Source: a virus. Taken from it: a DNA stretch of 29,302 nucleotides. The stretch is taken from the UHGV virus genome UHGV-0110803; one strand, given 5' to 3'. Every line of letters starts with the position of its first letter. The first letter of the stretch is position 1. Under the pieces are notes generated by a model. The model saw nothing but the letters and a program-made list of their open reading frames with translations, had not been told where the DNA came from and made no database searches. Positions 2,203-29,302 of the stretch are shown here, one piece after another. The translations under genes were made by a program, and so were the position numbers.

Positions 2203-4824
2203 TTATCGTCCTGATTGCTGGCCGTTCTGGAAAATGTTAATCAGGTTGTCGCGCTGACTTTCTGCGCTGTATTCCTTAGACTGTCCGGGAGTATATTTCA
2301 CCGGAGTATCAATGAACTTGGTAATGCGGTTCCATACTGATCGGTTGGTTGTTCCCAGTTTCGCCAGATCGTTGAACGGCACCGTAATCGGGTTGCCGTC
2401 GGCACCGTTGACGATCAGCCCGTTGAGCATCAGGGTAAGTCCTGTTTCGTCGCTGTTGGTAACCCACTGCGCATTATCACGAATGCGGGAGATACTCTGC
2501 TCACGGTTGACCTCATCAGGTAGCCTTGGGTCACCAATAAGCGGCATAATCTGATCTGCTGACAGGTTTTTCAGATACGCATTGGCACCATCGTTAACGT
2601 CACGAATATCTACCCCTGCACGATTAGGTAGCCGCCAAGTGCCATTGGTCTGGTACTGCTCGCCGAGAAGGTCCTGATACGCCTGTTTTGCTGCATCAGA
2701 CGCCGACATTCCGCGCTGCATGTAGTTGTAGGTCAAGCGTTTTCCCTGCTCGTTATAAATAGTCCAGTTTTCAGCACCATTTCTCTGAGGAATAAGAGTT
2801 GAAGAAAAATCTTTAAATTGATCTGTCCACGATGAGTCTGCACTGTCTGCCTGGTTTTTATCCAAACCAGATCTCAAATCAGAAGTAGGTACATTCCGTA
2901 TTTGCCACAACGCATCTGCTGCCCGTTGGTTTTCTGTAGACATTACAACCTTTAAAGCTGGGAATGCTTTATTTTGCACCTGCCGCATCACCTGATCCGA
3001 GTATTTGCCGAACGACTGCGCCACCGACTGAATGGCCTTTACGCTAGATTCCTGCGTGTTGTCAATACGCTGCAGTACGTCGTTGACCATGGACTCCGGT
3101 AAAACTTTTTTGCTCATTATCCCCAGGCGGTCTTTTTCAGACTGTATGCGGGAAACTAGGTATTCACCAGATGAAGGGTCATTCAGGTACTGCTGGAATG
3201 CAGCCTGCACAACCGGAGAGTTTTGTTGCAGCCATGCCCCCGGATCCGCTTCCCGCGCCTTCAGTACCTGCCCAAGCTTGACCTTTGCCGATGCATAAAG
3301 CTCTGCTTTGTATTTAAAGTCAGAGTCGTTTTCCTGCGGTGCCATTGCCTGCACGGCGGCGGTACCTTGCTGGACGTTGCCCTGCATAATGGTCTGATAA
3401 ACAGGTTGTAGCGTCATTGCCTGCTGGTATTGCTGGAAGGTTTTTTCCATCTGCAGGCGCTCGGCAGGCGCTGCCTGAAGCGGCATAACGGCGGCCCATT
3501 CGTGCGCTGAAATAGGCGTCACCTGCTTACCGGCCTCAATTTTGGATAGGTCGTCCTGCATTCGACTCTGTAGCGCAACGCGACCGGCTGAAGCCTGCAT
3601 GTCGTACATGCCAGCAACCTTGCTCATCATCTGCGACTTTTTGTCCGGACTCATGGCGTTCCAGAATGGCTGTGCGATGAGGTTTTCCATCGTCGCAGAT
3701 CCAGGAATAGCTCCAGCACTGCCAGTTACTTTTGCCACATAATTGCGCGTCTCGTCGTATGGGATAGCTGCGGCAAACTGGGCGTTACTGACTTCGCCTG
3801 TGCGCGGATCGCCAATCTGTTTAATCCAGCCGTCAACCTTTCCTGGGCCAGCGTTATAGGCAGCTACTGCCAGAACCGGGTTATTGTCGTATTTCTTCAT
3901 CTGCGCGCCGAAATAAGCTTGCCCCAAGCGGGCATTATAGCGCGGGTCATTCAACCATTTATCTCGGTCCCACGGCACGCCAGCAAGGCGGGCAGCTTCG
4001 GGGCCAGTATCTTCCGTCACCTGCGCTACGCCAACAGCGCCTTTTGGCGACACCAGAGGTGTTCCGTCCTTTCCGTACTGATTTCCGCCACTCTCCTGCC
4101 AGATTATTGCAGAGAATAACTGCGCCTCACTCGGTGTATCGGTTACCTCAATCTTGCCGTTCGGACCCATCATCTGTTGATACATCGGCACATACCACGC
4201 CTCCGCCGCACCGTTCGCGGCATTCTCGCGCCACGAAACCCAGTTCTGTTCAATCTCTTCCTGACTCTGGCCGTGGGCTTCGCCGTAAGCGATGATGCTA
4301 TGATATGCCTTCAATCCTGCCTGGTTTGCCATTGTCGGGTTACGGAACTGCATCGATAGGTTTTTTAGTGTCGCATCCTGCATATCCGCCTCATACTGGC
4401 GAACCTGTCCTATTTCGTACCTCCCGGCCTGCGTAGTGAACTGAATGCGCTGCTGCTGCGCCTGCTGCATGAAAGCATTACGAGCCTGTTCATCCGGCAG
4501 CGACATAGCCAGTTGTTCGACCTGAGCATCAAACTGCTGCGTATACTCCTGACCTTTTCCAATAGCATTTTTCCCTTTCAGGTTAAGCAAACCTGTTTCA
4601 GGGTTATTCAGCAGATCGCTGCCTGTCTGACTGAGTTTAAGGGATGCCTCCTGAACCATAGCAACATTCTCTTTCTGCCTGGCTTCACCATATGCCACCG
4701 CATACTGATCTGCGACATTCGCCAGCACCTGACCTGCTTGAGGAACATCGAAGGTCTGAAAACCACCGGTTTGCACACCACGACTTTGCACCTGGCGGCC
4801 GGATGTAGTAGGAACAACAGGCAT
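2203..4824 (-). CDS. Internal virion protein with lytic transglycosylase (SLT) domain (873 aa)
   Basis: SLT signature IIWQESGGNQ ... AYNAGPGKV inside a large virion-module ORF. Confidence 0.75.
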   Translation of the reverse strand: MPVVPTTSGRQVQSRGVQTGGFQTFDVPQAGQVLANVADQYAVAYGEARQKENVAMVQEASLKLSQTGSDLLNNPETGLLNLKGKNAIGKGQEYTQQFDAQVEQLAMSLPDEQARNAFMQQAQQQRIQFTTQAGRYEIGQVRQYEADMQDATLKNLSMQFRNPTMANQAGLKAYHSIIAYGEAHGQSQEEIEQNWVSWRENAANGAAEAWYVPMYQQMMGPNGKIEVTDTPSEAQLFSAIIWQESGGNQYGKDGTPLVSPKGAVGVAQVTEDTGPEAARLAGVPWDRDKWLNDPRYNARLGQAYFGAQMKKYDNNPVLAVAAYNAGPGKVDGWIKQIGDPRTGEVSNAQFAAAIPYDETRNYVAKVTGSAGAIPGSATMENLIAQPFWNAMSPDKKSQMMSKVAGMYDMQASAGRVALQSRMQDDLSKIEAGKQVTPISAHEWAAVMPLQAAPAERLQMEKTFQQYQQAMTLQPVYQTIMQGNVQQGTAAVQAMAPQENDSDFKYKAELYASAKVKLGQVLKAREADPGAWLQQNSPVVQAAFQQYLNDPSSGEYLVSRIQSEKDRLGIMSKKVLPESMVNDVLQRIDNTQESSVKAIQSVAQSFGKYSDQVMRQVQNKAFPALKVVMSTENQRAADALWQIRNVPTSDLRSGLDKNQADSADSSWTDQFKDFSSTLIPQRNGAENWTIYNEQGKRLTYNYMQRGMSASDAAKQAYQDLLGEQYQTNGTWRLPNRAGVDIRDVNDGANAYLKNLSADQIMPLIGDPRLPDEVNREQSISRIRDNAQWVTNSDETGLTLMLNGLIVNGADGNPITVPFNDLAKLGTTNRSVWNRITKFIDTPVKYTPGQSKEYSAESQRDNLINIFQNGQQSGR

Positions 4825-5390
4825 CAGTAACCTCCTATTTTGAATCGGGAGTCAGAATTCATAAAACCTGAGTTAGATAACATTGGCGTGTTTCCTTGCT
4901 TACTAATCGGATTGATACTTCCGCCACCCAACTTATATGCACCGTACGCTTTTAGTGGTGCCGTTAACAAAGTGCTGGTCATCGATGATTTAGCAGCCGA
5001 CTGAGCAGCAGCCCCCTGTGCCTGAGCATTCATTCCCTGAACCTGATACCCATATGCCTCACGCTGAGCATTATTCACTGTCGTTAACGCATCAAGAGTG
5101 CCGAACTGAGCATTATCCGCAAAAACGTCAAGAGCTGTTCCGCTACTTAATTCCGCACCGGTAGCCCCCATAGTGGCCGCCGCAGTACCTGAGCGTTGAC
5201 GCATTTCACGACGACGCTGATCCGCTTCAATATTCCCACGATTGATTGAATCCTGTGCCTGAGCTTCAGCAATTTCAGCATTCCGATCAGCTATGGCTGA
5301 CTGGTATTTTGCCTGCTTGCTCTGGCTGTACATTGACGCGGCTGTGGATGCCACTGTGACGGCAACCAAAGCGATGGCTGGGTTACACAT
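4824..5390 (-). CDS. Internal virion protein with N-terminal transmembrane helix (gp14-like position)
   Basis: N-terminus PAIALVAVTVASTAASMY is hydrophobic; Gln/Ala-rich remainder; gene order after tail tubular genes. Confidence 0.5.
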   Translation of the reverse strand: MCNPAIALVAVTVASTAASMYSQSKQAKYQSAIADRNAEIAEAQAQDSINRGNIEADQRRREMRQRSGTAAATMGATGAELSSGTALDVFADNAQFGTLDALTTVNNAQREAYGYQVQGMNAQAQGAAAQSAAKSSMTSTLLTAPLKAYGAYKLGGGSINPISKQGNTPMLSNSGFMNSDSRFKIGGY

Positions 5391-5854
5391 TATTTTCTCT
5401 CCATGTGAAATCTGTGGAAATTAAGACCAAGAGCACCATAAGGCGCGGCTTCTTCAAGCCTGAATCCAAGCCAGTGCAGCCATGCTTTGGCAACATGGTT
5501 TCGCTCGTCGACGTAGTTTTCCAGGCGCGGATAAACTGCCAGCATCTGCTGCAATACAGGGCGGCAGTGGCGAAGAAATGTCTTCTGATATTTTTCAATA
5601 CGGCTGGTTCCTACCAGCCAGGGCGTACCATTGCCACCGATCATTGACGCCGGAGATACGCCAAACATGGTTACCAGTTCTCCGTTCGCAAATCCTGACC
5701 AGGCCATAGTCGCAGTGCGAAGACCAACACGCAGCGCATCTTCGGTAGTCATCAGCGATACCGCATACAGTTCGTCAATATCAGCCTGACGAACATCCGG
5801 CAAAATCATCTGAAGATGCTCTTCGGTAGCGGGAATAATTTGAACGTCAATCAT
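5390..5854 (-). CDS. Small virion-module protein (gp13-like position, 154 aa)
   Basis: Positional call only; overlaps neighbours by 1 nt (coupled). Confidence 0.4.
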   Translation of the reverse strand: MIDVQIIPATEEHLQMILPDVRQADIDELYAVSLMTTEDALRVGLRTATMAWSGFANGELVTMFGVSPASMIGGNGTPWLVGTSRIEKYQKTFLRHCRPVLQQMLAVYPRLENYVDERNHVAKAWLHWLGFRLEEAAPYGALGLNFHRFHMERK

Positions 5855-8325
5855 CAGAATCCCCCAACAGTAAGGCGAGGAATAACGGCAAGAACAGACA
5901 GCGGCAACGGGTCAAGCTGACGGATTTTTACACGTCCGTTTTTGCCCCAGTTACTGTCCAGTTTCACTTCTACTTTTCCGGTAGCATCATCAACAGGATC
6001 ATCGTAGAACTCGAATTCACGCTGTGGATATTCGTACCATTTACCGCCGGGCGTAGTCGCCCAGATGCCGCGACTGGCATTCACAACCAGAGTAACGGAG
6101 GGGATCACCTGTTTTTTGTCCAGCAGCGTTTCCTGTCCGTTAATGTTGATATCCAGTGTTTCGAATTCAGCAGTTATTGGCAGGCCGATGTGCACTACAG
6201 CCCCCGGAGATTCCAGCGTGACGGCACCTCCGGAAACCACTTTCTGTGGTTCCACGTTCGCATCAGAGAGAATGTTTACGGTCTGACCTTCAAGATGAGA
6301 CAAGCCGCCAAATGCCCGGCGCGCCATCTGCCAGTTCGTGGTGGCCACATTCCTGAGGGATGGCGGGACGTTCCTGTTAGGACGAACCACTACAGCGGTA
6401 TTGCTGGTTACAGAAATAATGTCGCAACGTAATTCTTTTGACACTTCATCGCCAGTATCAGGATCAGTTCCGGCATAAGGGAACTGTAGTTGCGCACCGA
6501 CATCACTACTGGTGAAGTACGCACCACCAGAAACACTGATTGTATATTCCGCGCGGTAATCCCATTCACCAGAACCACCAGTGATGATCATCGTTCTGTC
6601 AGACGTATTTCTTCCATCATAGCTAAGGCCAGAATCAACAAAGAAAGCGTCTTCATCGCTGGTAAATAAACGGCTGGACAGTCTCTCGATGTATCTCACT
6701 GCTTGCCCGTTAACGGTTCGGTTAACGACGAAATACACCGCATCTTCATTGCCTTCGCTGATACTGCATGTGCTTTCATATTTTCCGGTACTGGACTGTG
6801 GTGCCCATGCAAAAACCTGCTGATCACGCAAATAGGTCATCACCAGTAATTTACCGTCATCACGAATGCAGAAGGCGCTGGAGTAAGGGACAATCGAGAA
6901 GCACCAGTCAACAATGCTGTGCTTCTGAAAAAGATGATTGGCAAGGATGGTCAGGTCGTTCCCCTGATAGCCGTCAACATCGAATGAGTAGGCCAGATCA
7001 CGGACAACGCTGCCTTTCTCCTGGACGAACAGAGCAATATTCGCCACAGCAATTGGTGGGACATTGCTCGAGCCATTTGATCCCTGAGAGCTGAATGCAA
7101 ATGATGATGGGGTTAACACTTTGTTCTGGTCGCCGGTGATGACGTACTCACCTCCGGAAGTCAGTGCCACCAGCGAACCGACATCAATCAGGTGGCGGAT
7201 CTCATTAACCTGACGCCCGGCATAGGTGTAGATAATTCTGTCGTCATCCTGCGTAGGATTGCTTTTGCCAAAATCCTTATAATCCCCGGTACGGCTGGCC
7301 CAGATAGTCTGAGGGAACGCAGTCGATGCGGCGAAGTAAAGACGTTGTTGATAATAAACAACAGTGCCAGGATAACCATTAACACTGTTCCAGGCATATT
7401 TAGCCCATTTATAGCTGGCATTATCCTCGCCAACGACCTGCGAAGGGATATAGGAAATCACCTCGGCAGTTGCAGTAGTTCCATTTGCAGCAGTGATACG
7501 GGCAATGCCAAAACCACTGTGCAGATATTCCCACTCAATGCCAGTATCATCATCACCGGATCCGCCCCAGCCATCCCATGATGTGCCTTCTGTATGCGAA
7601 GGGCGCAAAGTGCCTGTTTTGCCTGCTGTAACGGCGCGATAGTAGTTACTGTCTGCACGGCGAATATCGCCAATCGACGTACTCTTACTGGTTTCCCATA
7701 CCGGCACTGAATCCACTGCAGGCTGTTCCAGATAGAACAATTTGCCTACCTGCTCCGCGCCAAAAATAGAGGCGCTTGCTGTTAACGTAATTGTCCCGGT
7801 GCTGGCGCTGGCATAAACCGTCACTGACTCGTCAATATTGATATCTTCAAATGGCCCGTTCTTCGTTACCACATCAACCAGTTGCCAGTTGTCATGCGCA
7901 TAGCGGCGCAACTCTTTCGGCGGGTATGCCGGGTGAACCAGCGTAAGCACGTCGGCGCTTTGCGTAAATTTAATTCGGAACAGATCGGCTTCAGTATATG
8001 GCGTGGCAATTTCATAAATAACATTGCTGCTGTTCAGCACCAACGCACCATCTTTGATAACGCGCATGTACTGGTGCCCGAACTCCAGAGCATAGGTCTG
8101 AACCGTCGAGAACTGGAACGGGATCAGGCGGCATTTCCGATTTGGGTATTTGGCGGCACCGACAAAACGCGTACCAGGTCGATTCTCAACGCCGCCATAC
8201 TGCCGCACGATAAAGTTATCGCACTTGCGCAATGCCACCTGGTACTTCGCCATGTCGATACGACCGTACAACGACGGTCCAATCTCACCACCGGCAAAGC
8301 TGGGCTGGATCCAACTGATAGCCAT
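5854..8325 (-). CDS. Tail tubular protein B-like (nozzle), 823 aa
   Basis: Size, position after the adaptor gene and N-terminal pattern SFAGGEIGPSL resembling T7 gp12-type proteins (from memory, not searched). Confidence 0.6.
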   Translation of the reverse strand: MAISWIQPSFAGGEIGPSLYGRIDMAKYQVALRKCDNFIVRQYGGVENRPGTRFVGAAKYPNRKCRLIPFQFSTVQTYALEFGHQYMRVIKDGALVLNSSNVIYEIATPYTEADLFRIKFTQSADVLTLVHPAYPPKELRRYAHDNWQLVDVVTKNGPFEDINIDESVTVYASASTGTITLTASASIFGAEQVGKLFYLEQPAVDSVPVWETSKSTSIGDIRRADSNYYRAVTAGKTGTLRPSHTEGTSWDGWGGSGDDDTGIEWEYLHSGFGIARITAANGTTATAEVISYIPSQVVGEDNASYKWAKYAWNSVNGYPGTVVYYQQRLYFAASTAFPQTIWASRTGDYKDFGKSNPTQDDDRIIYTYAGRQVNEIRHLIDVGSLVALTSGGEYVITGDQNKVLTPSSFAFSSQGSNGSSNVPPIAVANIALFVQEKGSVVRDLAYSFDVDGYQGNDLTILANHLFQKHSIVDWCFSIVPYSSAFCIRDDGKLLVMTYLRDQQVFAWAPQSSTGKYESTCSISEGNEDAVYFVVNRTVNGQAVRYIERLSSRLFTSDEDAFFVDSGLSYDGRNTSDRTMIITGGSGEWDYRAEYTISVSGGAYFTSSDVGAQLQFPYAGTDPDTGDEVSKELRCDIISVTSNTAVVVRPNRNVPPSLRNVATTNWQMARRAFGGLSHLEGQTVNILSDANVEPQKVVSGGAVTLESPGAVVHIGLPITAEFETLDININGQETLLDKKQVIPSVTLVVNASRGIWATTPGGKWYEYPQREFEFYDDPVDDATGKVEVKLDSNWGKNGRVKIRQLDPLPLSVLAVIPRLTVGGF

Positions 8326-8933
8326 CAGGACAACCTCGCAATGGTAAACTCATCAACCGGTGGCTGTGGTTCCTGTGATTCATTCTGGCTATGCGAGCCA
8401 GCACTAAGAATCACGCGATTGTACATATTGAGGGCAAACGTACCGAGGTCTGCATTCCCAGTCAGCGCCATGTTAATAGCTGCCGCAAGACGCCAGGCCA
8501 GCGCCTCCATAAAAATGGCATCAAACATGTTCACATCTGTAACGCGAGAGACATACTTAAGCCATGCCTGCGGCTGGTCTGTGTAGATCAATTTTCCTGT
8601 TCCGTTGGTGTCTGCACCAACTTCGTACTGAACACGCATTGCTGCTGTTGGATTGCGTACACCAGGAAGCATAATTTCAGTAATGCGCAGACAATCGGAA
8701 GGGTACTGGTACGCATATTCCCAGTCAGGCGGTGGATTGCTCGTATCTGCAAGCGCCACGCGTTTTGTAGCAAAGTTCCAGTCAAAATCAGAAAGCACAG
8801 CATCACGACAGGCCTCAAAATGCAGCGAACATTCCCCCGCTTCCTTGCTGGCTTCCGTCAGGCTGTTAATGCTGCGGCTGTTGCCAATATTGGACAGCGC
8901 ACGATTACAGATCTCTACTACAGAGGCCATCAC
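8325..8933 (-). CDS. Tail tubular protein A-like (adaptor/gatekeeper), 202 aa
   Basis: About 200 aa immediately upstream of the tubular B-like gene; N-terminal pattern NRALSNIG ... DFDWNF resembles T7 gp11-type proteins. Confidence 0.5.
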   Translation of the reverse strand: MMASVVEICNRALSNIGNSRSINSLTEASKEAGECSLHFEACRDAVLSDFDWNFATKRVALADTSNPPPDWEYAYQYPSDCLRITEIMLPGVRNPTAAMRVQYEVGADTNGTGKLIYTDQPQAWLKYVSRVTDVNMFDAIFMEALAWRLAAAINMALTGNADLGTFALNMYNRVILSAGSHSQNESQEPQPPVDEFTIARLS

Positions 8934-14458: not shown

Positions 14459-14535
14459 GTGGCATTAGCTCAGTTGGACAGAGCAACCGCCTTCTAAGCG
14501 GTTGGTCGCAGGTTCGAATCCTGCATGCCACGCCA
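14459..14535 (+). tRNA. tRNA-Arg (anticodon UCU), CCA encoded
   Basis: Cloverleaf folded by hand: acceptor GTGGCAT/ATGCCAC, D-stem GCTC/GAGC, anticodon stem ACCGC/GCGGT with loop CTTCTAA, T-arm GCAGG-TTCGAAT-CCTGC, discriminator G, CCA. Confidence 0.85.
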
Positions 14536-18796: not shown

Positions 18797-19186
18797 TCAC
18801 TCTCCTTTTCCCTGAAGCATAGCGGCACGGCAGGCGTTCCAGCCTCTCACCTCTGCAATAGCAGCAACAGCATCAACCGCGTACATGCTAAGAGGATTAG
18901 GCATTGGTTTTTCTTCCGGTACTACTGGAACGGGTGGAGCGGCGTAGACCTCAATAATTCCATTATCAATAGGCCACTCCCCATCCTTGATGTAGTCACT
19001 TGTGCCGTCAACTTGCTGTTCTGCAATGTGAAATGCACCTATTGGTTTTGCTTCCAGCGATACCAGTGCAATACGAAACACATTGGCAAGCAGGCTGTTT
19101 GAAGATTGGTTATCGTGCGCCGGGTCGCTCAGGAAACCAGTGATGAATGATTTAATTTCCGCGTTTTCTCTGGTAATAGTGGTCAT
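18797..19186 (-). CDS. Hypothetical protein (129 aa), N-terminus MTTIT
   Basis: Coupled to neighbouring genes; shares the first five residues and start-region DNA with the next gene. Confidence 0.4.
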   Translation of the reverse strand: MTTITRENAEIKSFITGFLSDPAHDNQSSNSLLANVFRIALVSLEAKPIGAFHIAEQQVDGTSDYIKDGEWPIDNGIIEVYAAPPVPVVPEEKPMPNPLSMYAVDAVAAIAEVRGWNACRAAMLQGKGE

Positions 19187-19548
19187 GCCGTAGCCCCTTC
19201 TTGATATTTTTCAAACCAGAACACAATCGGGTCAGATTTCATTTCAACCAATCCCATACGAACCAGCGCTTTGCCTTTCCCGGACGCAAGGAATTCACGA
19301 CGACCATCACTGATAATTCGCCGATAATCTTCCAGGCTGCTGCAATGCTTGTGCAGATTGCATGGGTGGCATGCCGGAACCATGTTGGATATATCGTCAC
19401 GTTCCTGGTGAAGCATATTTCCAGCAAAACGAATGACCGGTTTTACATGGTCTGCATGCCACTTTTCGCCAAGTTCGCAGCCGCAATAAGCACAGCGACC
19501 GCCGAACTTCATGCGCAGCTCTGCACGTTGTTTTTTCGTCAGTGCCAT
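19183..19548 (-). CDS. HNH endonuclease (121 aa)
   Basis: CAYCG ... HADHVKP ... ACHPCN motif. Confidence 0.8.
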   Translation of the reverse strand: MALTKKQRAELRMKFGGRCAYCGCELGEKWHADHVKPVIRFAGNMLHQERDDISNMVPACHPCNLHKHCSSLEDYRRIISDGRREFLASGKGKALVRMGLVEMKSDPIVFWFEKYQEGATA

Positions 19549-23618: not shown

Positions 23619-24203
23619 ATGAAAAGTATCCAGGACGTCCGCAGGCAAAATCTCAACGACTTGATCGACCGTGAATTCAATGGTGTTCAGACGCGGATGG
23701 CAGAAAAACTTGGAACTCAGGCAAATCTGGTAAACCGCTGGGCTCTTGGCAAGAAGGTTATCGGCGACCAGGTTGCGCGAAAAATTGAAGCTGCCGCCAA
23801 TAAACCACGTAACTGGCTTGATATCGATCGCTCGCTTTCTCAGGAAGGTTTTCAGCCTGTCGGCCCAAGCGACATTGGTCAGCTGGCGGCTCACAACCTG
23901 GAACGCTGGATGAGCGAAAGCCGCGACCTTTCAACTCAGGGAAAACTTCACCGCGCATCCGGCGTCGCCCAGGTGACAATCAGCCGCCTGTTAAACAATG
24001 AGGTCAGCGTTTCCATTTCCACCCTGGAGAATGTTGCATCCGCATTCGGGCGTCACGGCTATGAATTACTGATTCACCCGCACGACCCTGCGACCATCAA
24101 CTATGACCGCTCGCGCTACGCATTGTTACCCGAAACCGAGAAAGCAAAGATCGAAAGTTACATTGAATTTGTCATCAACCAGAACGAAAAAAACAAACAA
24201 TAA
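23619..24203 (+). CDS. Prophage repressor candidate with two HTH motifs and no peptidase domain (194 aa)
   Basis: Two XRE-type HTH segments (QTRMAEKLGTQANLVNRW and ASGVAQVTISRLLNN); no Ala-Gly/Ser-Lys autocleavage signature seen. Confidence 0.6.
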   Translation: MKSIQDVRRQNLNDLIDREFNGVQTRMAEKLGTQANLVNRWALGKKVIGDQVARKIEAAANKPRNWLDIDRSLSQEGFQPVGPSDIGQLAAHNLERWMSESRDLSTQGKLHRASGVAQVTISRLLNNEVSVSISTLENVASAFGRHGYELLIHPHDPATINYDRSRYALLPETEKAKIESYIEFVINQNEKNKQ

Positions 24204-24223
24204 AATCATACTTTTCAGTAAGT

Positions 24224-24250
24224 AAGCCGCCTTCTGGCGGCTTTTTTATT
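24224..24250 (+). terminator. Intrinsic terminator after the repressor gene (AAGCCGCC-TTCT-GGCGGCTT then TTTTATT)
   Basis: 8-bp stem plus T-tract. Confidence 0.65.
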
Positions 24251-24260
24251 GCCTATACTG

Positions 24261-24337
24261 TTACCTAATAGGTAATTTTCTTAACTCATATCTATTGACA
24301 TCAAACCAAATACGCATAATTATTACCTCAACGGTAA
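24261..24337 (+). promoter_or_regulatory. pL-like promoter: palindrome TTACCTAATAGGTAA (24261-24275), -35 TTGACA (24295-24300), 17-bp spacer, -10 AATTAT fused to TTACCTCAACGGTAA (24323-24337)
   Basis: Consensus -35; two perfect palindromes 62 bp apart centre to centre. Confidence 0.6.
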
Positions 24338-24356
24338 CAGACCGAGGTAACAAGTT

Positions 24357-24509
24357 ATGCAGTGGAAAATCATCAACGGTTGGTACTGCGTTACTGCATG
24401 CGGATTCATGAGTTGGAAGTTTCGCACCTTACAGGAAGGCATTAAGTGGGCTTTCGTCAGCAAAGAAGCTCGCGATGTGGCCAACGATAACGAGATATGG
24501 GAGGGCTGA
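24357..24509 (+). CDS. Small Trp-rich protein (50 aa), first gene of the pL-like operon; not in the ORF track
   Basis: GAGGT RBS 8 nt before the ATG; frame translated by hand to TGA at 24507-24509. Confidence 0.35.
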   Translation: MQWKIINGWYCVTACGFMSWKFRTLQEGIKWAFVSKEARDVANDNEIWEG

Positions 24510-24511
24510 TA

Positions 24512-24811
24512 ATGAACGTTAATCAGCAGAAAAATCTTCAAAAAATCATGCTGGCATTCGACAAGGACTACCGCCTGTCAGAACAGCTATATGACCGACA
24601 AGTTGAACTGATTGAGAGCATCCGACTTCATCAACTGTCCTCAACTTTCGACGTTGTAACAGGCAAAGGCGTTCGTCAGGAAGTGCTGGAGGCTGCTAAA
24701 GACAGCCCTGAGTTCGAAGAACTGATGGATGCCTACCGGCGCGAGGCAATGGCAATTATAGCGCGCTGGGATCTGGCGGATCAGCTTGATGGGCAGAGGG
24801 ACGCGGCATGA
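24512..24811 (+). CDS. Hypothetical protein (99 aa from the internal ATG)
   Basis: GGAGGG RBS 7 nt before the ATG at 24512; 4-nt overlap with the exonuclease gene. Confidence 0.5.
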   Translation: MNVNQQKNLQKIMLAFDKDYRLSEQLYDRQVELIESIRLHQLSSTFDVVTGKGVRQEVLEAAKDSPEFEELMDAYRREAMAIIARWDLADQLDGQRDAA

Positions 24812-25629
24812 AACCGGGAATTTATTTCGACATCAGCAACGAAGACTACCACGCAGGTGACGGCGTGAGTAAGTCGCAACTGGACATGGTTGCCAAGAAT
24901 CCGGCGCTTCTTAAATGGGTTCAGGCAGCACCAGAAGACGAAGAGAAAAAGTCTGCACTGGATATGGGAACCGCATTGCACTGCCTGCTTCTGGAACCTG
25001 GAGAATTCGACAAACGCTTCATCGTTTCACCGAAATTCGATCGTCGGACAAAACAAGGTAAAGCTGACGAAGAAGCATTTCTTCGTGATGTGGCGGATAT
25101 GGGTATTACGGTACTTGATGTCGAGCAGTGGCGAAAACTGGAGCTGATGCGTGATAGCGCAATGGCTCATCCGGCGGCACGCTGGATGTTGGAAGCACCT
25201 GGTTACTGCGAAGCATCAATGTACTGGAACGATGAAGAGACGGGTGAGTTGTGCCGAATTCGTCCAGACAAATGGCTGAACGAGCACAACGTGATCGTCG
25301 ACGTGAAAAAGGTTGCAGATATGGACCGTTTTGCACGCCACATCGAGGAATTCCGCTACCACGTGCAGGACGCAATGTACCGCGAAGGCGCAATGAGGGT
25401 TACTGGTCAGCCGCATGGTTTTTTCTTTCTTGCCGTGAGCGAAAGCATTGATTGTGGTCGGTATCCGGTACGCGTGTTCGAGCTGGATGCGCCAGATGTC
25501 GATGCCGGGCACGCTCTGTTCCGCCGGGATCTGAATACCTATCACGAATGCCGCATCAACGATGAATGGGGCGGAGTGGAAATTATTAAACGCCCTGACT
25601 GGGCACGTAAACAGGATATGTACGTATGA
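24808..25629 (+). CDS. PD-(D/E)XK-type recombination exonuclease (exonuclease VIII/RecE C-terminal-like), 273 aa
   Basis: N-terminus MKPGIYFDISNEDYHAGDGVSKSQL typical of this family (from memory); coupled to the annealing-protein gene. Confidence 0.7.
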   Translation: MKPGIYFDISNEDYHAGDGVSKSQLDMVAKNPALLKWVQAAPEDEEKKSALDMGTALHCLLLEPGEFDKRFIVSPKFDRRTKQGKADEEAFLRDVADMGITVLDVEQWRKLELMRDSAMAHPAARWMLEAPGYCEASMYWNDEETGELCRIRPDKWLNEHNVIVDVKKVADMDRFARHIEEFRYHVQDAMYREGAMRVTGQPHGFFFLAVSESIDCGRYPVRVFELDAPDVDAGHALFRRDLNTYHECRINDEWGGVEIIKRPDWARKQDMYV

Positions 25630-26507
25630 GCAATGATATCGCAATCACATCACAACCAGGCGCAACTGTAGGCACTGCTGCGGCAATCTTCAGCCCCGAG
25701 GGCATGAATCAACTGGTGCGTTTCGCGGAGTTGATGTCACAAAGCAAAGCGACTGTACCGAAACATCTTGAAGGCAAACCTGCCGATTGCCTGGCGGTGA
25801 CCATGCAGGCGGCACAGTGGGGAATGAACCCTTTCGCCGTGGCGCAGAAAACGCATGTGGTAAACGGAACGTTAGGCTACGAAGCACAGTTGGTAAACGC
25901 GGTCGTATCCTCTTCCAGCCTGCTAGCGACACGCCTTAATTATCGCTGGAGCGGTGACTGGTCGAATGTTAACGGCAAAACAGATAAATCACCGAATCTG
26001 ACGGTAACTGTGTCAGCAGTTCTTAAAGGAGAAGTAGAACCACGTGAGCTTACCATCAGTATGGCGCAAGCCGGAGTGCGTAACTCTCCATTGTGGGAAC
26101 AGGATCCGCGCCAGCAACTTGCCTATCTTTGCACGAAACGATGGGCTCGCCTGCACGCTCCTGATGTACTTCTTGGTGTTTACACCCCTGACGAATTACA
26201 GGAAACGGCACCGCGCGTTGAGCGAGACATTACTCCGCAAACAACTACTGCTGCGGGAATGAACAGTCTGATCAACGCTAAACCAGTGAAAAAGCCTGAT
26301 GAGCAAACGCGTAAAGCGGATAGCCGTGATCCAGAAGAAATGCTGATGGCCTTTACCAGCGCAGCGATGAATTACAGCACTGTCTCCGAACTGGATAAGG
26401 CTTACAAATACATTGCACAAAAACTTTCAGATGATGACGAACTGCTGGCAAAAGCCACCGACGTTTACAGCGTTCGTCGGGAAGAATTAAACGAAACATC
26501 TATGTAA
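25626..26507 (+). CDS. Single-strand annealing protein, Bet/Red-beta-like (293 aa)
   Basis: Segments NPFAVAQ, PLWEQDPRQQL ... RWARLHA and ERDITP parallel lambda Bet (recalled, not searched). Confidence 0.75.
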   Translation: MSNDIAITSQPGATVGTAAAIFSPEGMNQLVRFAELMSQSKATVPKHLEGKPADCLAVTMQAAQWGMNPFAVAQKTHVVNGTLGYEAQLVNAVVSSSSLLATRLNYRWSGDWSNVNGKTDKSPNLTVTVSAVLKGEVEPRELTISMAQAGVRNSPLWEQDPRQQLAYLCTKRWARLHAPDVLLGVYTPDELQETAPRVERDITPQTTTAAGMNSLINAKPVKKPDEQTRKADSRDPEEMLMAFTSAAMNYSTVSELDKAYKYIAQKLSDDDELLAKATDVYSVRREELNETSM

Positions 26508-26556
26508 CCACCACCGCGGCGCCACGCGCGCCGCACTGCAACCAAGAGAGGTATTT

Positions 26557-26805
26557 ATGAAAGGTGCATTAGGTAAGAAGGAACTCCTGGCGGTGGTGCC
26601 ACTGTCATGGAGCACTATCGACCGTATGGAGCGCGCAGGTGAATTTCCTAAACGCTGGTATATCACTGACAAACGCTGCGCATGGAACCGTGACGAAGTT
26701 GAGCGTTGGCTTGATGAACGTCAGGCAGCAAGCCCGGCAGAGTTCCAGGGTAAAAAGCCTCCGGTTCAGCAACGTGTATATCGTCCTGTGAGCAACGCTG
26801 CATGA
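26557..26805 (+). CDS. AlpA/Xis-type excisionase or regulator (82 aa)
   Basis: Motif LLAVVPLSWSTIDRMERAGEFPK ... AWNRDEVERWL. Confidence 0.65.
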   Translation: MKGALGKKELLAVVPLSWSTIDRMERAGEFPKRWYITDKRCAWNRDEVERWLDERQAASPAEFQGKKPPVQQRVYRPVSNAA

Positions 26806-26914
26806 GTGTGCTTCTAAGGCACTGGAGCAAATGGTCAGGATGGTACTTATTCCTGGCCTCTGTTTCAGCATGGCTTTATCTGCTGGCATTAATTTTCAGA
26901 GAGGGTTGGATTAA

Positions 26915-27214
26915 GTGAGAAAGTTAAGCCGACTTGAAAAATATCACATGAACAAGGTTTCAATGCGCAGTCCGTCAAAGATTGTCGCCGTTACTCCTGC
27001 GGCGATAGAGATCGAAAAACGCGCGATTGAAAGAGAGAAAAAAGGGCAGTTCCGCATTGCCGCTCACCTTTGGCTTCAGTGTATGGATGTTGCTTCTGGT
27101 GATGTTGAGCGTGCAAGGATCGCGGTTCGCAGGGACCAATGTATCACAAAAGGTAACGGCCTTCGCCGTGGCGACTATAGCGGCATAGGATGTTGTGGGG
27201 TGGTTTATGACTAA
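26915..27214 (+). CDS. Small hypothetical protein, possibly ANR-like regulator (start uncertain: GTG at 26915 or ATG at 26963)
   Basis: Segment FRIAAHLWLQCMDVA ... ERARIAVRRDQC; assignment is tentative. Confidence 0.35.
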   Translation: MRKLSRLEKYHMNKVSMRSPSKIVAVTPAAIEIEKRAIEREKKGQFRIAAHLWLQCMDVASGDVERARIAVRRDQCITKGNGLRRGDYSGIGCCGVVYD

Positions 27215-27857
27215 GAAATACACACTAATCTATGCAGATCCACCCTGGGTATACCGGGACAAAGCCGCAGATGGTAATCGCGGTGCCGGTTTTAAATATC
27301 CGGTTATGAGTGTGCTGGATATCTGCCGCCTTCCTGTGTGGGATTTGGCCGATGAAAACTGTCTGTTGGCCATGTGGTGGGTGCCAACACAACCACTCGA
27401 AGCACTAAAAGTTGTTGAAGCCTGGGGATTCCGTCTGATGACCATGAAGGGCTTCACGTGGATAAAATGTGGTAGTCGACAACCAGATAAACTGGTTATG
27501 GGTATGGGACACATGACTCGCGCCAATAGTGAAGATTGCCTGTTTGCAGTAAAGGGAAAACTACCTACGCGCATTAATGCAGGGATCGTTCAGTCATTTA
27601 CCGCACCGCGGCTTGAGCACTCAAGAAAACCAGATATCGTTCGTGAAAAACTTGTGCAATTGTTAGGCGATGTTTCTCGCATTGAACTGTTCGCCCGCCA
27701 GACGTCTCATGGCTTCGATGTTTGGGGTAATCAGTGTGAAGACCCGGCAGTGCAACTACACCCCGGATACGCGTTGGATATTGGCGGATTAACAAATGCA
27801 TTCAGCAATTCTCCGCTGTCACCAACAGACAACCAGGGGCGGGAGCGTGCAGCATGA
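27207..27857 (+). CDS. MT-A70 family DNA N6-adenine methyltransferase (216 aa from the internal ATG)
   Basis: Catalytic DPPW motif in IYADPPWVY; 8-nt overlap with the upstream gene. Confidence 0.8.
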   Translation: MTKKYTLIYADPPWVYRDKAADGNRGAGFKYPVMSVLDICRLPVWDLADENCLLAMWWVPTQPLEALKVVEAWGFRLMTMKGFTWIKCGSRQPDKLVMGMGHMTRANSEDCLFAVKGKLPTRINAGIVQSFTAPRLEHSRKPDIVREKLVQLLGDVSRIELFARQTSHGFDVWGNQCEDPAVQLHPGYALDIGGLTNAFSNSPLSPTDNQGRERAA

Positions 27858-28048
27858 ACAGGGCATCACCAGCAGATTTAAGGAAATGCCTTGAAACTGC
27901 AAACATGCTTGCACACAGCGGGATCAGGTTTGTTCCAATTCCCGCTGTCACTGATGCTGAATTTGCAACACTGTCAGCAATATTCGCAGATAAAATTGAA
28001 TCACTGGCAGCAGAAGCCGAGATGGAAGAAAATCAGCAGAATAATTAA
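27854..28048 (+). CDS. Hypothetical small acidic protein (64 aa)
   Basis: 4-nt overlap with the methyltransferase gene; no recognisable domain. Confidence 0.4.
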   Translation: MNRASPADLRKCLETANMLAHSGIRFVPIPAVTDAEFATLSAIFADKIESLAAEAEMEENQQNN

Positions 28049-28051
28049 ACG

Positions 28052-29302
28052 TTATTCCCCCGCCATCCATTTCTCAAACTTCGACGGGGAGAACGGAATC
28101 AGATCCGTATGCTCCCCGTCAATCCAGGAATCAATCATATCGGCCCACTGCTGCAACATGTAGGCGCGCTGTCTGGCGTATTCCGCTTTGTTATATACGG
28201 CGCGCACACCTTTCTGCTCATGTGCCAGAGCCTTTTCAATCCAGTCTGAAGGATAACCAGCCTCATGCAATAACGTACTGGCTGTACGGCGCATATCGTG
28301 TACGGTGAAGTCCTGAATATGCTCACCATTTTCATTTATTATTTTCACCGTTCTGTCGATCAGAGAGTTCAGCGCGGCATTAGATAATGGCTTCCGGAAG
28401 TTGTAACGACCAGGAACCAGATATTCACTTCCACCAGCGCACATCTGCAGCCCGACCAATATATCCTGTGCCTGTTTAGGCAGGTAAATAACGTGCGCCC
28501 GGCTTCCCTTCATGCGGTCTGAAGGAATTGTCCATGTCCATTTTTTAAAATCTATTTCATCCCACGTTGCGTTGGTGAATTCGCCTTTACGAACCATAGT
28601 GATAAGCACCAGCTTTAAAGCCATTTTCATAGTGCCCATAGCACCAATGGCATCCAGCGTGCGGAAGAACAGGCCAATTTCTTCTGGTGTCAGTGTTCGC
28701 TCTCGTGGTTTAAATATGGCGATAGACGAAGGTTTAATGTCAGCCGCAGGATTAAACAAACCATGACCACGGTCATTGGCGTGACGGTATACGCTGCTGA
28801 TGATCTCCCTGGCCTGTACTGCTGTTGCCCGACCACCGCGTTCGACAATCCTGTCACACAAATCACGAACCATCGATGTGGTAATTTCAGTCATCATTTT
28901 GTTGCCAAGAACAGGAAGTATTTCACGGTCGATCACTGCCTGCTTCATTGCGCGGGTACTTTCAGCCAGGATGACGTGTTTCATATAACTGGCGGTATGT
29001 ACCGCAAACGTCTCGGCACCACGAATCTTTTTGATACCGTCACGTTTAGCCGCAGCCGGCGACTGGCCTGCTTTAAGCAGCTTCTTTGCAGCAATCAGTT
29101 CTTCTCGCGCTTCTGCCAGGCTGATACCGTCACGCCCATACTGCCCGATTACCAGTGTTTCGCGGCGACCGTTGATACGGTAGTCATAACGAAACGAGAC
29201 CGTGCCTGACGTAAGCACAGCGACATACAGCCCGTCACGATCGGAGACCTTGTACAGTTTGTCCTGCGGCTTGAGGTTTTTTAATTTTGTATCGGTAAGC
29301 AC
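28052..29302 (-). CDS. int: Tyrosine integrase (P4-like family); N-terminus at or just beyond the window edge
   Basis: N-terminal LTDTKLKNLKPQDK arm-binding pattern; catalytic-region motifs HDMRRTAST and VRAVYNKAEY; the ORF reaches position 29302. Confidence 0.9.
   Translation of the reverse strand: MLTDTKLKNLKPQDKLYKVSDRDGLYVAVLTSGTVSFRYDYRINGRRETLVIGQYGRDGISLAEAREELIAAKKLLKAGQSPAAAKRDGIKKIRGAETFAVHTASYMKHVILAESTRAMKQAVIDREILPVLGNKMMTEITTSMVRDLCDRIVERGGRATAVQAREIISSVYRHANDRGHGLFNPAADIKPSSIAIFKPRERTLTPEEIGLFFRTLDAIGAMGTMKMALKLVLITMVRKGEFTNATWDEIDFKKWTWTIPSDRMKGSRAHVIYLPKQAQDILVGLQMCAGGSEYLVPGRYNFRKPLSNAALNSLIDRTVKIINENGEHIQDFTVHDMRRTASTLLHEAGYPSDWIEKALAHEQKGVRAVYNKAEYARQRAYMLQQWADMIDSWIDGEHTDLIPFSPSKFEKWMAGE

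Follow-up and report, generated by a model that had tools for sequence, protein, structure and literature searches.

Orphan methylases of temperate phages are expressed on exit and are silent in the lysogen (PMC5778455; review PMC12707154). M.EcoGII of Escherichia coli O104:H4, the best functional analogue of the enzyme described here, is a prophage-borne, solitary N6-adenine methylase of the beta class (motif IV first), which is not expressed in the lysogen and presumably shields phage DNA on exit (PMC5778455). The MT-A70 family includes ciliate MTA1, which produces 6mA in DNA, and METTL3, which produces m6A in RNA; the eukaryotic enzymes operate in heteromeric complexes, together with paralogues that are inactive and with distinct nucleic-acid-binding partners. 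Orf63, encoded by an exo-xis gene, is pro-lytic, an effect known for lambda and phi24B (PMC10869804, PMC5575149).

Phage phiV10 (NC_007804) carries at p34-p31 the gene order AlpA, 38-aa membrane protein, PerC-like protein, MT-A70 methylase and small last gene, next to a convergent P4-type int gene with a 3-nt junction. Equivalent regions with the same gene order are found in Salmonella phages epsilon15 and SPN1S and in Enterobacter phage Tyrion (genus Uetakevirus). Epsilon15 differs by an additional small ORF, another last gene, and a 154-nt gap with a terminator-like hairpin before int. Junction gaps in related phages range from -4 to +4 nt. A DndB-like gene coupled to the methylase gene occurs as an optional partner in SPN1S, in Citrobacter werkmanii and in 5 of 80 near-identical E. 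coli loci.

Gene content and operon structure

The window, by which we mean the whole stretch of 29,302 nucleotides analysed here, ends at the start codon of int. Its ORF map agreed in all coordinates and features with an earlier note on this DNA (Table 1). At this locus, gene order and 3-nt junction are identical to those of phiV10, with no material difference, whereas the recombination/replication region is mosaic relative to that phage. A database search gave 98.6% identity of the region to phiV10. The region was found in 564 of 5426 complete E. coli genomes, and the exact sequences of all three proteins (ORF1 to ORF3) are already in NCBI. In strain G5, int adjoins guaA. The arrangement is thus real yet ordinary, since its genes are an already-annotated part of the common phiV10/epsilon15-type prophage and form the far operon end of it. 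As this prophage type is present in about one-tenth of sequenced E. coli strains and the region is published and annotated, the significance of the locus is small as it stands. On balance, we favor as probable a joint reading in which the locus represents the promoter-distal part of the early-left (pL-like) operon in an E. coli-integrated temperate podovirus of the phiV10/epsilon15 type (Uetakevirus), the operon being repressed in the lysogen and encoding a methylase with an anti-restriction role.

Table 1. Positions of features in the window
Feature	Position	Strand	Remarks
Terminator-like hairpin	24224-24243		3' of repressor-like gene (23619-24203)
Palindrome TTACCTAATAGGTAA	24261-24275		
pL-like sigma-70 promoter candidate, TTGACA-17-AATTAT	24295..24323	+	10/12 match; early-left operon
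Palindrome TTACCTCAACGGTAA	24323-24337		
AlpA-type excisionase/regulator	26557..26805	+	Pfam Phage_AlpA; PHROG 'excisionase and transcriptional regulator'
38-aa membrane protein, phiV10 p35 equivalent	26802..26918	+	PHROG 17484
ORF1, PerC-family small basic protein, 99 aa, pI 9.8	26915 (GTG)..27214	+	Pfam PF06069
ORF2, N6-adenine methyltransferase of the MT-A70 family (beta class), solitary, 216 aa, confined to the catalytic core	27207 (ATG)..27857	+	Pfam PF05063
ORF3, lambda Orf63 homologue (DUF1382), 64 aa, last operon gene	27854..28048	+	Pfam PF07131
Spacer ACG, 3 nt, between convergent stops	28049..28051		also in phiV10 annotation and most of 80 near-identical loci
P4-type tyrosine integrase (int), 416 aa	28052..29302	-	Arm-DNA-bind_3, Phage_int_M and Phage_integrase all above threshold
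Conserved nested GC-rich hairpin in last 25 int codons	28083..28120		35 nt past ORF3 stop

The operon comprises, in this order, genes for a RecE-like exonuclease, RecT, the AlpA-type excisionase, the 38-aa membrane protein, the PerC-family protein, the MT-A70 methylase, and the Orf63 homologue. The promoter candidate lies just downstream of the terminator-like hairpin behind the repressor-like gene and is bracketed by the two palindromes listed in Table 1. Palindromes of the form TTACC-N5-GGTAA occur 10 times in the window (0.5 expected), some of them in the divergent repressor/cro-like region. Promoter and operator calls are pattern matches, and the 2 promoter-like matches in the scanned region represent no enrichment over the 5.6 expected from shuffles. 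From 24324 to 28051, the plus strand had no predicted terminator-like or promoter-like site. Membership in a pL-like operon, as proposed earlier, is thereby supported by the promoter candidate with its palindromes and by the lack of any predicted intrinsic terminator through 28051. Consecutive reading frames overlap: the stop codon of the 38-aa membrane protein overlaps the ORF1 start (GTGA), the end of ORF1 and the start of ORF2 share 8 nt (ATGACTAA), and the ORF3 start overlaps the ORF2 stop (ATGA), with a GGGAG Shine-Dalgarno sequence 8 nt upstream. Translational coupling of these frames, which had been suggested for ORF1 and ORF2, is probable. Transcription would start at the candidate promoter with its two operator-like palindromes and end tail to tail against int, and the early-left operon would be repressed in the lysogen and turned on upon infection or induction.

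The earlier note had grouped ORF1 to ORF3 as a trio. A functional module they are not: among 10 relatives from other genera whose integrases are at least 79% identical, PerC was present in all 10 (near-core), whereas 7 had the methylase (semi-core). The third position is a swappable cargo slot. Homologues of the methylase with 78 to 84% identity were also located at unrelated positions of other phages, where PerC is missing. With methylase homologues traveling alone and an exchangeable third slot, a single module of three genes is ruled out.

Small proteins flanking the methylase

ORF1 exceeded the gathering threshold of the Pfam PerC profile (30.1 versus 22.6 bits; residues 35-80) and matched PHROG 868 ('transcriptional activator') end to end over residues 1-99 with 207 bits. 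In RefSeq, the same protein is named 'PerC family transcriptional regulator'. Its former designation as ANR-like had to be abandoned: the score against the NCBIfam ANR model (NF033650) was 23.6 bits, below the cut-off of 32, and the match fell on the same stretch (residues 35-77) as that to PerC. Like PerC of EPEC and PchA-E of EHEC, ORF1 is a small basic protein on a mobile element that passes the family threshold, but its match to PerC/Pch is weak (30 bits) and restricted to residues 35-80, and the phage version has no known LEE island or target. The long 99-aa form is supported by relatives with an ATG at the equivalent position and by conservation of the first 11 residues, whereas relatives have no start codon at the place of the internal ATG that some annotations use. 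The dN/dS ratio of ORF1 was 0.11-0.14, and the PerC-like protein may act as a small regulator.

ORF3 had previously been described only as an acidic 64-aa protein. Size and charge were as stated (10 acidic versus 5 basic residues, pI 4.5), and an identity can now be added. The protein scored 105.7 bits against PF07131 (threshold, 27; E = 1.3e-30), aligned over its full length with lambda Orf63 at 50% identity (E = 9e-21), and matched PDB entry 8dsb (E = 5.8e-13). As in lambda, the gene lies late in the early-left operon, past the recombination genes. However, lambda orf63, which has orf60a and orf61 as its neighbors, points in the same direction as xis and int, whereas ORF3 is the final gene, abuts a convergent int, and is missing in relatives from other genera. 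The slot that it occupies next to int holds variable cargo, with other genes in its place in relatives. By analogy with lambda, the Orf63 homologue would tip development towards lysis.

The convergent junction with int

The stop codons of ORF3 (TAA, 28046-28048) and int (28052-28054, minus strand) are separated by the spacer ACG, and a scan of 27850-28300 revealed no intrinsic terminator between the two genes, consistent with the earlier description of an unterminated 3-nt convergent junction. From this layout, transcriptional interference between the pL-like operon and int had been concluded. In such a reading, convergent transcription would generate antisense RNA and polymerase collisions as a selected device controlling Int synthesis. 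We regard this as possible, although not likely. The lack of an intrinsic terminator, as opposed to the bidirectional terminator-like hairpin of epsilon15 (L003, 3267-3282), the conserved tail-to-tail layout, and a conserved hairpin 35 nt into the antisense-int region would fit such a device. Yet the layout is generic: 24 of 26 species-representative integrase relatives had tail-to-tail gaps between -38 and +45 nt, many different genes abut int, and in distant relatives it is the AlpA homologue itself that does so. A near-zero gap is therefore the norm of the integrase family and no special sign of interference, nor is it bound to ORF1 to ORF3. Furthermore, Int has to act alongside the AlpA-type excisionase upon induction, so that strong silencing would be unexpected at this stage. 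Past the ORF3 stop, the RNA is rich in C (C/G ratio of 1.4-1.8 over 28004-28134) and not translated; RNA of this kind favors Rho-dependent termination, which also speaks against the device. To judge from base composition, antisense-int RNA may be terminated by Rho, compatible with the missing intrinsic terminator. In the operon-end reading that we prefer, transcripts extending beyond the ORF3 stop would be antisense-int RNA, most likely Rho-ended or processed, and any influence on int expression would be a secondary consequence.

The hairpin near the 3' end of int is exceptionally stable relative to shuffled sequences. RNA folding gave energies of -25.1 kcal/mol for the plus and -27.5 kcal/mol for the minus strand (z = -4.6 and -4.9, respectively), and none of 200 shuffles was as stable. 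Among relatives, 5 of the 7 stem codons were invariant, compared to 33 of 312 background columns, two compensatory pairs were present, and the covariation score was above that of 499 of 500 shuffles. No U-run adjoins the hairpin on either strand, and no Rfam family scored above threshold within 24000-29302. Two relatives (L099 and L104) keep both the internal hairpin and a stable junction hairpin that spans the stop codons, which counts against the proposed interference and also weakens the idea that the internal hairpin merely substitutes for an absent junction terminator; the junction hairpin of L099 was not classed as terminator-like by the terminator scan. In lambda sib-type retroregulation, int is co-transcribed from pL, and an RNase III hairpin forms only in read-through transcripts. 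Such a mechanism does not apply here, where int is convergent and not co-directional with the pL-like operon. An improbable but conceivable role for the hairpin lies in RNA processing or termination, by which it would coordinate the two convergent transcription units; this suggestion is separate from that made below for DndB-like proteins.

The solitary MT-A70 methylase

The MT-A70 identity of ORF2, proposed earlier from its DPPW motif, was clear-cut, with 80.0 bits against PF05063 (threshold, 23.9; E = 2.6e-22) over profile positions 1-172 of 172. The catalytic motif IV, IYADPPW, occupies residues 8-14 (DPPW, 11-14) near the N terminus in a permuted order, and D/SPPW is retained in all 7 homologues from other genera. 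PADLOC assigned ORF2 to MTase_II with 257 bits, and PDB sequence matches included Tetrahymena MTA1 (4e-13) and METTL3 (6e-6). An AlphaFold model of moderate confidence (pLDDT 71, pTM 0.72) resembled the METTL3/MTA1 catalytic domains (5il1_A, TMq 0.66; 7yi8_B, TMq 0.63; probability 1.00 for both); the matches span essentially the whole protein, the best being METTL3 and METTL4. ORF2 thus has Pfam family, fold, and DPPW motif in common with MTA1 and METTL3. Unlike these eukaryotic enzymes, it has no nucleic-acid-binding partner encoded beside it, although some relatives carry the coupled DndB-like gene. Hia5 and Hin1523, which are non-specific methylases of prophages, were rejected as kin of ORF2, both being Dam-like alpha-class enzymes with DPPY.

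Purifying selection on ORF2 is strong (dN/dS, 0.03-0.10). In 79 of 80 near-identical loci, the tblastn alignment was full-length or covered residues 3-216, and members of the phage group from Escherichia, Salmonella, Citrobacter, Klebsiella, Kluyvera, and Enterobacter have kept the gene. No cognate restriction enzyme accompanies it, in agreement with the earlier note: none was found among the 28 window ORFs by Pfam and PADLOC (∼10 kb of prophage outside the window being judged from relatives), none is annotated in phiV10, and none lies beside methylase homologues in other phages. The sole nuclease-like match in the window is a 121-aa HNH protein (19183-19548), 7.7 kb from the methylase gene.

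Since operator-like palindromes lie on either side of the promoter-like site of the operon, lysogens probably do not express the methylase, which, judging from its operon position, would act on phage DNA after induction. The enzyme consists of the catalytic MT-A70 core and lacks a separate domain for target recognition. Probably as a homodimer, like other beta-class enzymes, it would modify replicating phage DNA, and progeny genomes carrying N6-methyladenine would be shielded in the next host from its adenine-sensitive restriction systems. M.EcoGII offers a functional analogy but no homology: that enzyme has 349 aa, DPPY and FxGxG motifs and a central target-recognition region, and its demonstrated non-specificity (PMC5778455) does not extend to the 216-aa DPPW core of the window. 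The literature searched contained nothing relevant on a target motif or on expression of the phiV10/epsilon15 methylase. The earlier note had taken the lack of a new methylated motif in the lysogen as a refutation of its reading. This test is invalid because the gene belongs to an operon that is probably repressor-controlled and lysogen-silent, as M.EcoGII is (PMC5778455). Once determined, the specificity of ORF2 would indicate which restriction systems are evaded by these prophages and whether an MT-A70 enzyme made up of the core alone is sequence-specific. It would also correct the reading of methylome data from lysogens, in which no motif is left by a prophage methylase that is silent.

Methylation might instead serve the phage's own replication, packaging, or gene timing, with no part in restriction protection. 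Dam methylation of the pac sites of P1 exemplifies such an internal role. Many orphan phage methylases may regulate viral cycles (review PMC12707154), and the retention of this gene across six enterobacterial genera under strong purifying selection would be in keeping with that. So would its coupling or proximity to DndB- or ParB-superfamily genes in several relatives, since Iyer et al. linked such genes to modification during packaging (PMC4738411). We nevertheless consider this role unlikely. The methylase is absent from 3 of the 10 closest integrase relatives from other genera and hence dispensable for the phage type, and it is encoded among early-left accessory genes, with the terminase genes far away.

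Less likely still is lysogenic conversion, in which the PerC-like regulator and the coupled methylase would be expressed from the prophage and reprogram host gene expression epigenetically, thus acting on the host and not against restriction. PerC and Pch proteins, which are encoded on prophages or plasmids, regulate virulence and adhesion genes of the host. The 8-nt overlap of the PerC stop and the methylase start would suit joint expression of this kind, as would the presence of PerC in every one of the close integrase relatives, 7 of them with the methylase. Lysogens express some of the Pch proteins, the PerC homologues of EHEC (PMC7369912), so that, by analogy, a weak internal promoter for PerC and the coupled methylase may exist. 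However, no promoter-like site was predicted on the plus strand downstream of the pL-like candidate through 28051, the genes lie within an operon whose promoter has operator-like palindromes on both sides, and close homologues of the methylase occur in other phages without PerC. Constitutive broad-specificity phage methylases are, moreover, toxic (PMC5778455, PMC12707154). Silence in the lysogen and action after induction thus remain our preferred reading.

That the enzyme modifies RNA (m6A) and not DNA, as its family name, the JGI label 'N6-adenosine-specific RNA methylase IME4', the METTL3 and METTL4 structural matches, and RNA methylation by the unrelated M.EcoGII (PMC5778455) might suggest, is highly improbable given that ciliate DNA methyltransferase MTA1 was the top sequence match among solved structures and that PADLOC groups ORF2 with Type II DNA methylases. 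As the closest solved relatives include the RNA methyltransferases METTL3 and METTL4, the substrate class is nonetheless one that we infer.

The MT-A70 family of enterobacterial phages is very common and represents, among solved structures, the closest prokaryotic sequence relative to MTA1/METTL3. In the ciliate MTA1c complex, MT-A70 subunits need separate DNA-binding partners. It is conceivable, if improbable, that the methylase and a DndB/ParB-superfamily protein form a two-component DNA-adenine modification module, with the DndB-like part targeting or gating the enzyme and the solo form having low specificity. If true, such a module would be a prokaryotic parallel to MTA1c.

Identity of the region and its genes

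The stretch 26500-28300 was 98.6% identical to Escherichia phage phiV10 (genus Uetakevirus), with the same annotated genes (p36 to p31) and the same 3-nt junction with the integrase gene int, and was present in 564 of 5426 complete E. coli genomes. RefSeq names the genes there PerC family regulator, MT-A70 family methyltransferase, and DUF1382 family protein (here ORF1, ORF2, and ORF3), and the exact sequences of all three proteins are already public. In the rest of the window lay this phage type's structural, replication, and immunity region; int displayed a P4-type domain set, and an AlpA-type excisionase was present. The region is an ordinary part, already annotated and widespread, of a known type of prophage. 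All coordinates of an earlier note, made from the sequence alone, held against the ORF list and the sequence, and most of its identifications were right or nearly right. A tRNA-Arg gene (anticodon TCT) lies inside the prophage, with the structural region on one side and the terminase region on the other.

Coordinates of features in the window and at loci of relatives (L-numbers, with their own numbering)
Feature	Position	Strand	Remark
ORF1	26915-27214	+	GTG start; ORF list and sequence
ORF2	27207-27857	+	ATG start; IYADPPW = residues 8-14
ORF3	27854-28048	+	stop 28046-28048
Spacer between ORF3 and int stops	28049-28051		ACG, 3 nt
int stop codon	28052-28054	-	
Nested GC-rich hairpin	28083-28120		within last 25 codons of int; RNA folding
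AlpA-type excisionase	26557-26805		
Promoter-like site	24295-24323	+	TTGACA-17-AATTAT; 3' of the repressor-like gene's terminator-like hairpin
TTACC-N5-GGTAA 15-nt sites	14122, 17313, 17331, 21156, 21218, 23164, 23501, 23549, 24261, 24323		
HNH endonuclease, 121 aa	19183-19548	-	
tRNA-Arg	14459-14535		
Cargo-slot loci	L028 1283-1969 and 2264-2632; L004 2855-3514; L003 3058-3240; L079 1285-2124		
DndB-like genes	L005 2244-3311; L143 3433-4428; L102; L025, L030, L039, L045, L073		
ParB-superfamily neighbors	L010-L013 (about 3000-4600); L006-L009 (about 4000-8600)		
F451 methyltransferase	L014 2385-3023		
Tyrion DUF1317 gene	L144 1912-2091		
Epsilon15 hairpin	L003 3267-3282		annotated in the epsilon15 record as RNase III site

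The stop of ORF1 and the start of ORF2 share 8 nt (ATGACTAA), while the stop of ORF2 and the start of ORF3 overlap (ATGA), with a GGGAG Shine-Dalgarno sequence ahead of ORF3. The ORF3 product matched DUF1382 (105.7 bits), is acidic as noted earlier (10 D+E versus 5 K+R; pI 4.5), and was 50% identical to lambda Orf63, whose gene belongs to the exo-xis region of lambda and is pro-lytic (PMC5575149, PMC10869804). An NMR structure of lambda Orf63 is available in the PDB.

ORF1, previously labeled ANR-like, passed the Pfam threshold for PerC (30.1 bits versus 22.6) but fell under the NCBIfam cut-off for ANR (23.6 bits versus 32), both matches lying in the same 45 residues; ANR membership was rejected. 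Its length differs among annotations (83, 88, or 99 aa), being 83 or 88 aa in RefSeq and phiV10 (window 26915-26962). Relatives in six other genera, and likewise epsilon15, have an ATG at the position equivalent to the GTG at 26915, where it overlaps the stop of the preceding gene; residues 1-11 are conserved, and no start codon corresponds to the window's internal ATG; PHROG 868 matched residues 1-99 end to end. By these comparisons the 99-aa form from GTG 26915, as originally proposed, is the better start call, and since relatives support it, the starts in public annotations probably lie too far downstream. A rare 297-aa protein (P0003; cluster of 3 member sequences) combines PerC and MT-A70 domains and may result from a frameshift that joins the PerC and methylase genes at their 8-nt overlap.

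The methylase and the predicted control of its operon

ORF2 matched MT-A70 with 80 bits in a Pfam profile search and contains the DPPW motif described before. Its nearest solved structures by sequence were ciliate MTA1 (4e-13), followed by METTL3. An AlphaFold model of moderate confidence superposed on the catalytic domains of METTL3 and MTA1 only (TM 0.63-0.66), and because it covers only these, ORF2 encodes a core enzyme without a separate recognition domain. Against homologues of other genera, dN was 0.09-0.18 with dS saturated, dN/dS was 0.03-0.10 where computable, and DPPW or SPPW was retained in all seven. In 79 of 80 near-identical loci, the tblastn alignment was full-length or spanned residues 3-216. 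The "DNA methyltransferase" of Stx2a phage F451 was 83% identical to ORF2 over residues 27-187; its N terminus, including DPPW, is replaced, with DUF1382 and then convergent int still downstream, and it is probably an inactive remnant.

No restriction-enzyme family turned up among the 28 ORFs of the window (about 10 kb of the prophage falls outside it), and the annotation of the complete phiV10 genome lists none, which justifies calling the methylase an orphan, as had been done. Homologues of 78-84% identity occupied quite different sites in other phages, after the lysis genes in some and in the region after the replication genes in others, and no restriction enzyme adjoined any of them. An HNH endonuclease with weak PADLOC matches to PtuB-type HNH models is encoded beyond the replication genes, not adjoining the methylase.

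ORF1 to ORF3 come last in a single, closely packed run of plus-strand genes, and no plus-strand terminator-like site was found between the promoter-like site and ORF3. Palindromes TTACCTAATAGGTAA and TTACCTCAACGGTAA flank this promoter-like site. The motif TTACC-N5-GGTAA occurred 10 times in the window versus 0.5 expected, mostly in paired, intergenic positions, on both sides of the pL-like promoter and at the divergent immunity region by the repressor-like gene; these palindromes are candidate repressor operators for several promoters. ORF1 to ORF3 would belong to an early-left operon under repressor control that is off in the lysogen, a pattern documented for M.EcoGII and Mom (PMC5778455, PMC12707154). 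Because of this inferred silence, the lysogen methylome, proposed as a check in the earlier note, would probably show no trace of it even with a fully active enzyme, and finding no motif there would not refute methylase function. Judged from context and precedent, the best-supported mechanism is that the solitary methylase, from an abundant core-only MT-A70 family, would be made after induction, marking progeny DNA against restriction.

Cargo slot and convergent junction beside int

We compared 80 viral contigs whose integrase was at least 98% identical to that of the window. The usual order, found in the majority, was Orf63, methylase, PerC, 38-aa protein, AlpA; an AntA-type antirepressor cassette replaced Orf63 in 5/80 contigs, a NinI-like phosphatase did so in 4/80, and unrelated genes lay at the locus in 1/80. 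The position adjoining the int stop is a cargo slot: its occupant in otherwise near-identical prophages was Orf63, a NinI-like phosphatase, a Bro-N protein, a 60-aa protein in epsilon15, or the pairing of an AntA antirepressor with a small ORF. Among species-representative genomes of Citrobacter, Kluyvera, Klebsiella, Superficieibacter, Scandinavium, and Pseudescherichia, the 10 relatives with int at least 79% identical all carried PerC, 7 carried the methylase, and none carried Orf63. The "trio" of the earlier note was thus rejected as one module: Orf63 is swappable, the methylase is missing in 3/10, and methylase homologues occur elsewhere on their own. In Enterobacter phage Tyrion, a DUF1317 gene (lambda orf60a family) lies between PerC and the methylase, so the AlpA-to-int interval of such phages collects lambda exo-xis-type genes.

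The 3-nt gap between the ORF3 and int stops was confirmed, and a consensus scan found no terminator-like site between the two genes, as previously stated. In 24 of 26 integrase relatives, from Enterobacterales to Betaproteobacteria, a convergent gene ended from 38 nt inside to 45 nt past the int stop; in distant relatives the AlpA homologue itself abuts int, and the gaps in cultured relatives were -4 (SPN1S), +2 (PAS61), +3 (phiV10), and +4 nt (Tyrion). Since tight gaps are this common, the 3-nt gap is characteristic of the family, not of the trio, and interference with int, formerly read as implied by the convergent arrangement, is possible but not implied. Among cultured relatives only epsilon15 departs from this: its last early-left gene and int are 154 nt apart, and the spacer contains a bidirectional terminator-like hairpin (AAGCCCGTAAGGGCTT plus T-run), which is missing from phiV10-type prophages. 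Untranslated C-rich RNA favors Rho-dependent termination, and plus-strand RNA past the ORF3 stop is untranslated and C-rich (C/G 1.4-1.8).

The hairpin inside the int 3' end (-25 to -27.5 kcal/mol; z about -4.7) was matched in stability by 0/200 shuffles and has no U-run. Across 12 integrases (79-100% identity), 5/7 stem codons were invariant versus 33/312 comparable columns overall, two stem pairs showed compensatory changes, and the covariation score exceeded that of 499/500 shuffles; conservation and covariation are no more than suggestive, the sample being small and its sequences related. Shorter, more distant integrases have no such C-terminal tail and lack the hairpin. The hairpin is also present in two relatives (L099 and L104) with stable junction hairpins spanning the stop codons, that of L099 not being classed as terminator-like by the terminator scan.

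Genes accompanying the methylase in relatives

In Salmonella phage SPN1S, Citrobacter werkmanii, E. coli G5, and 5 of the 80 near-identical viral contigs, the MT-A70 gene was translationally coupled to a DndB-like (DGQHR) gene that the window lacks; in the 5 contigs this gene sits between PerC and the methylase. The copies were 74-76% identical across genera, and the protein may act together with the methylase or regulate it. Methylase homologues of Klebsiella phages and of other E. coli phages had ParB-superfamily genes (HTH_ParB, ParB_N) beside or near them, an adjacency that resembles the DndB-like association.
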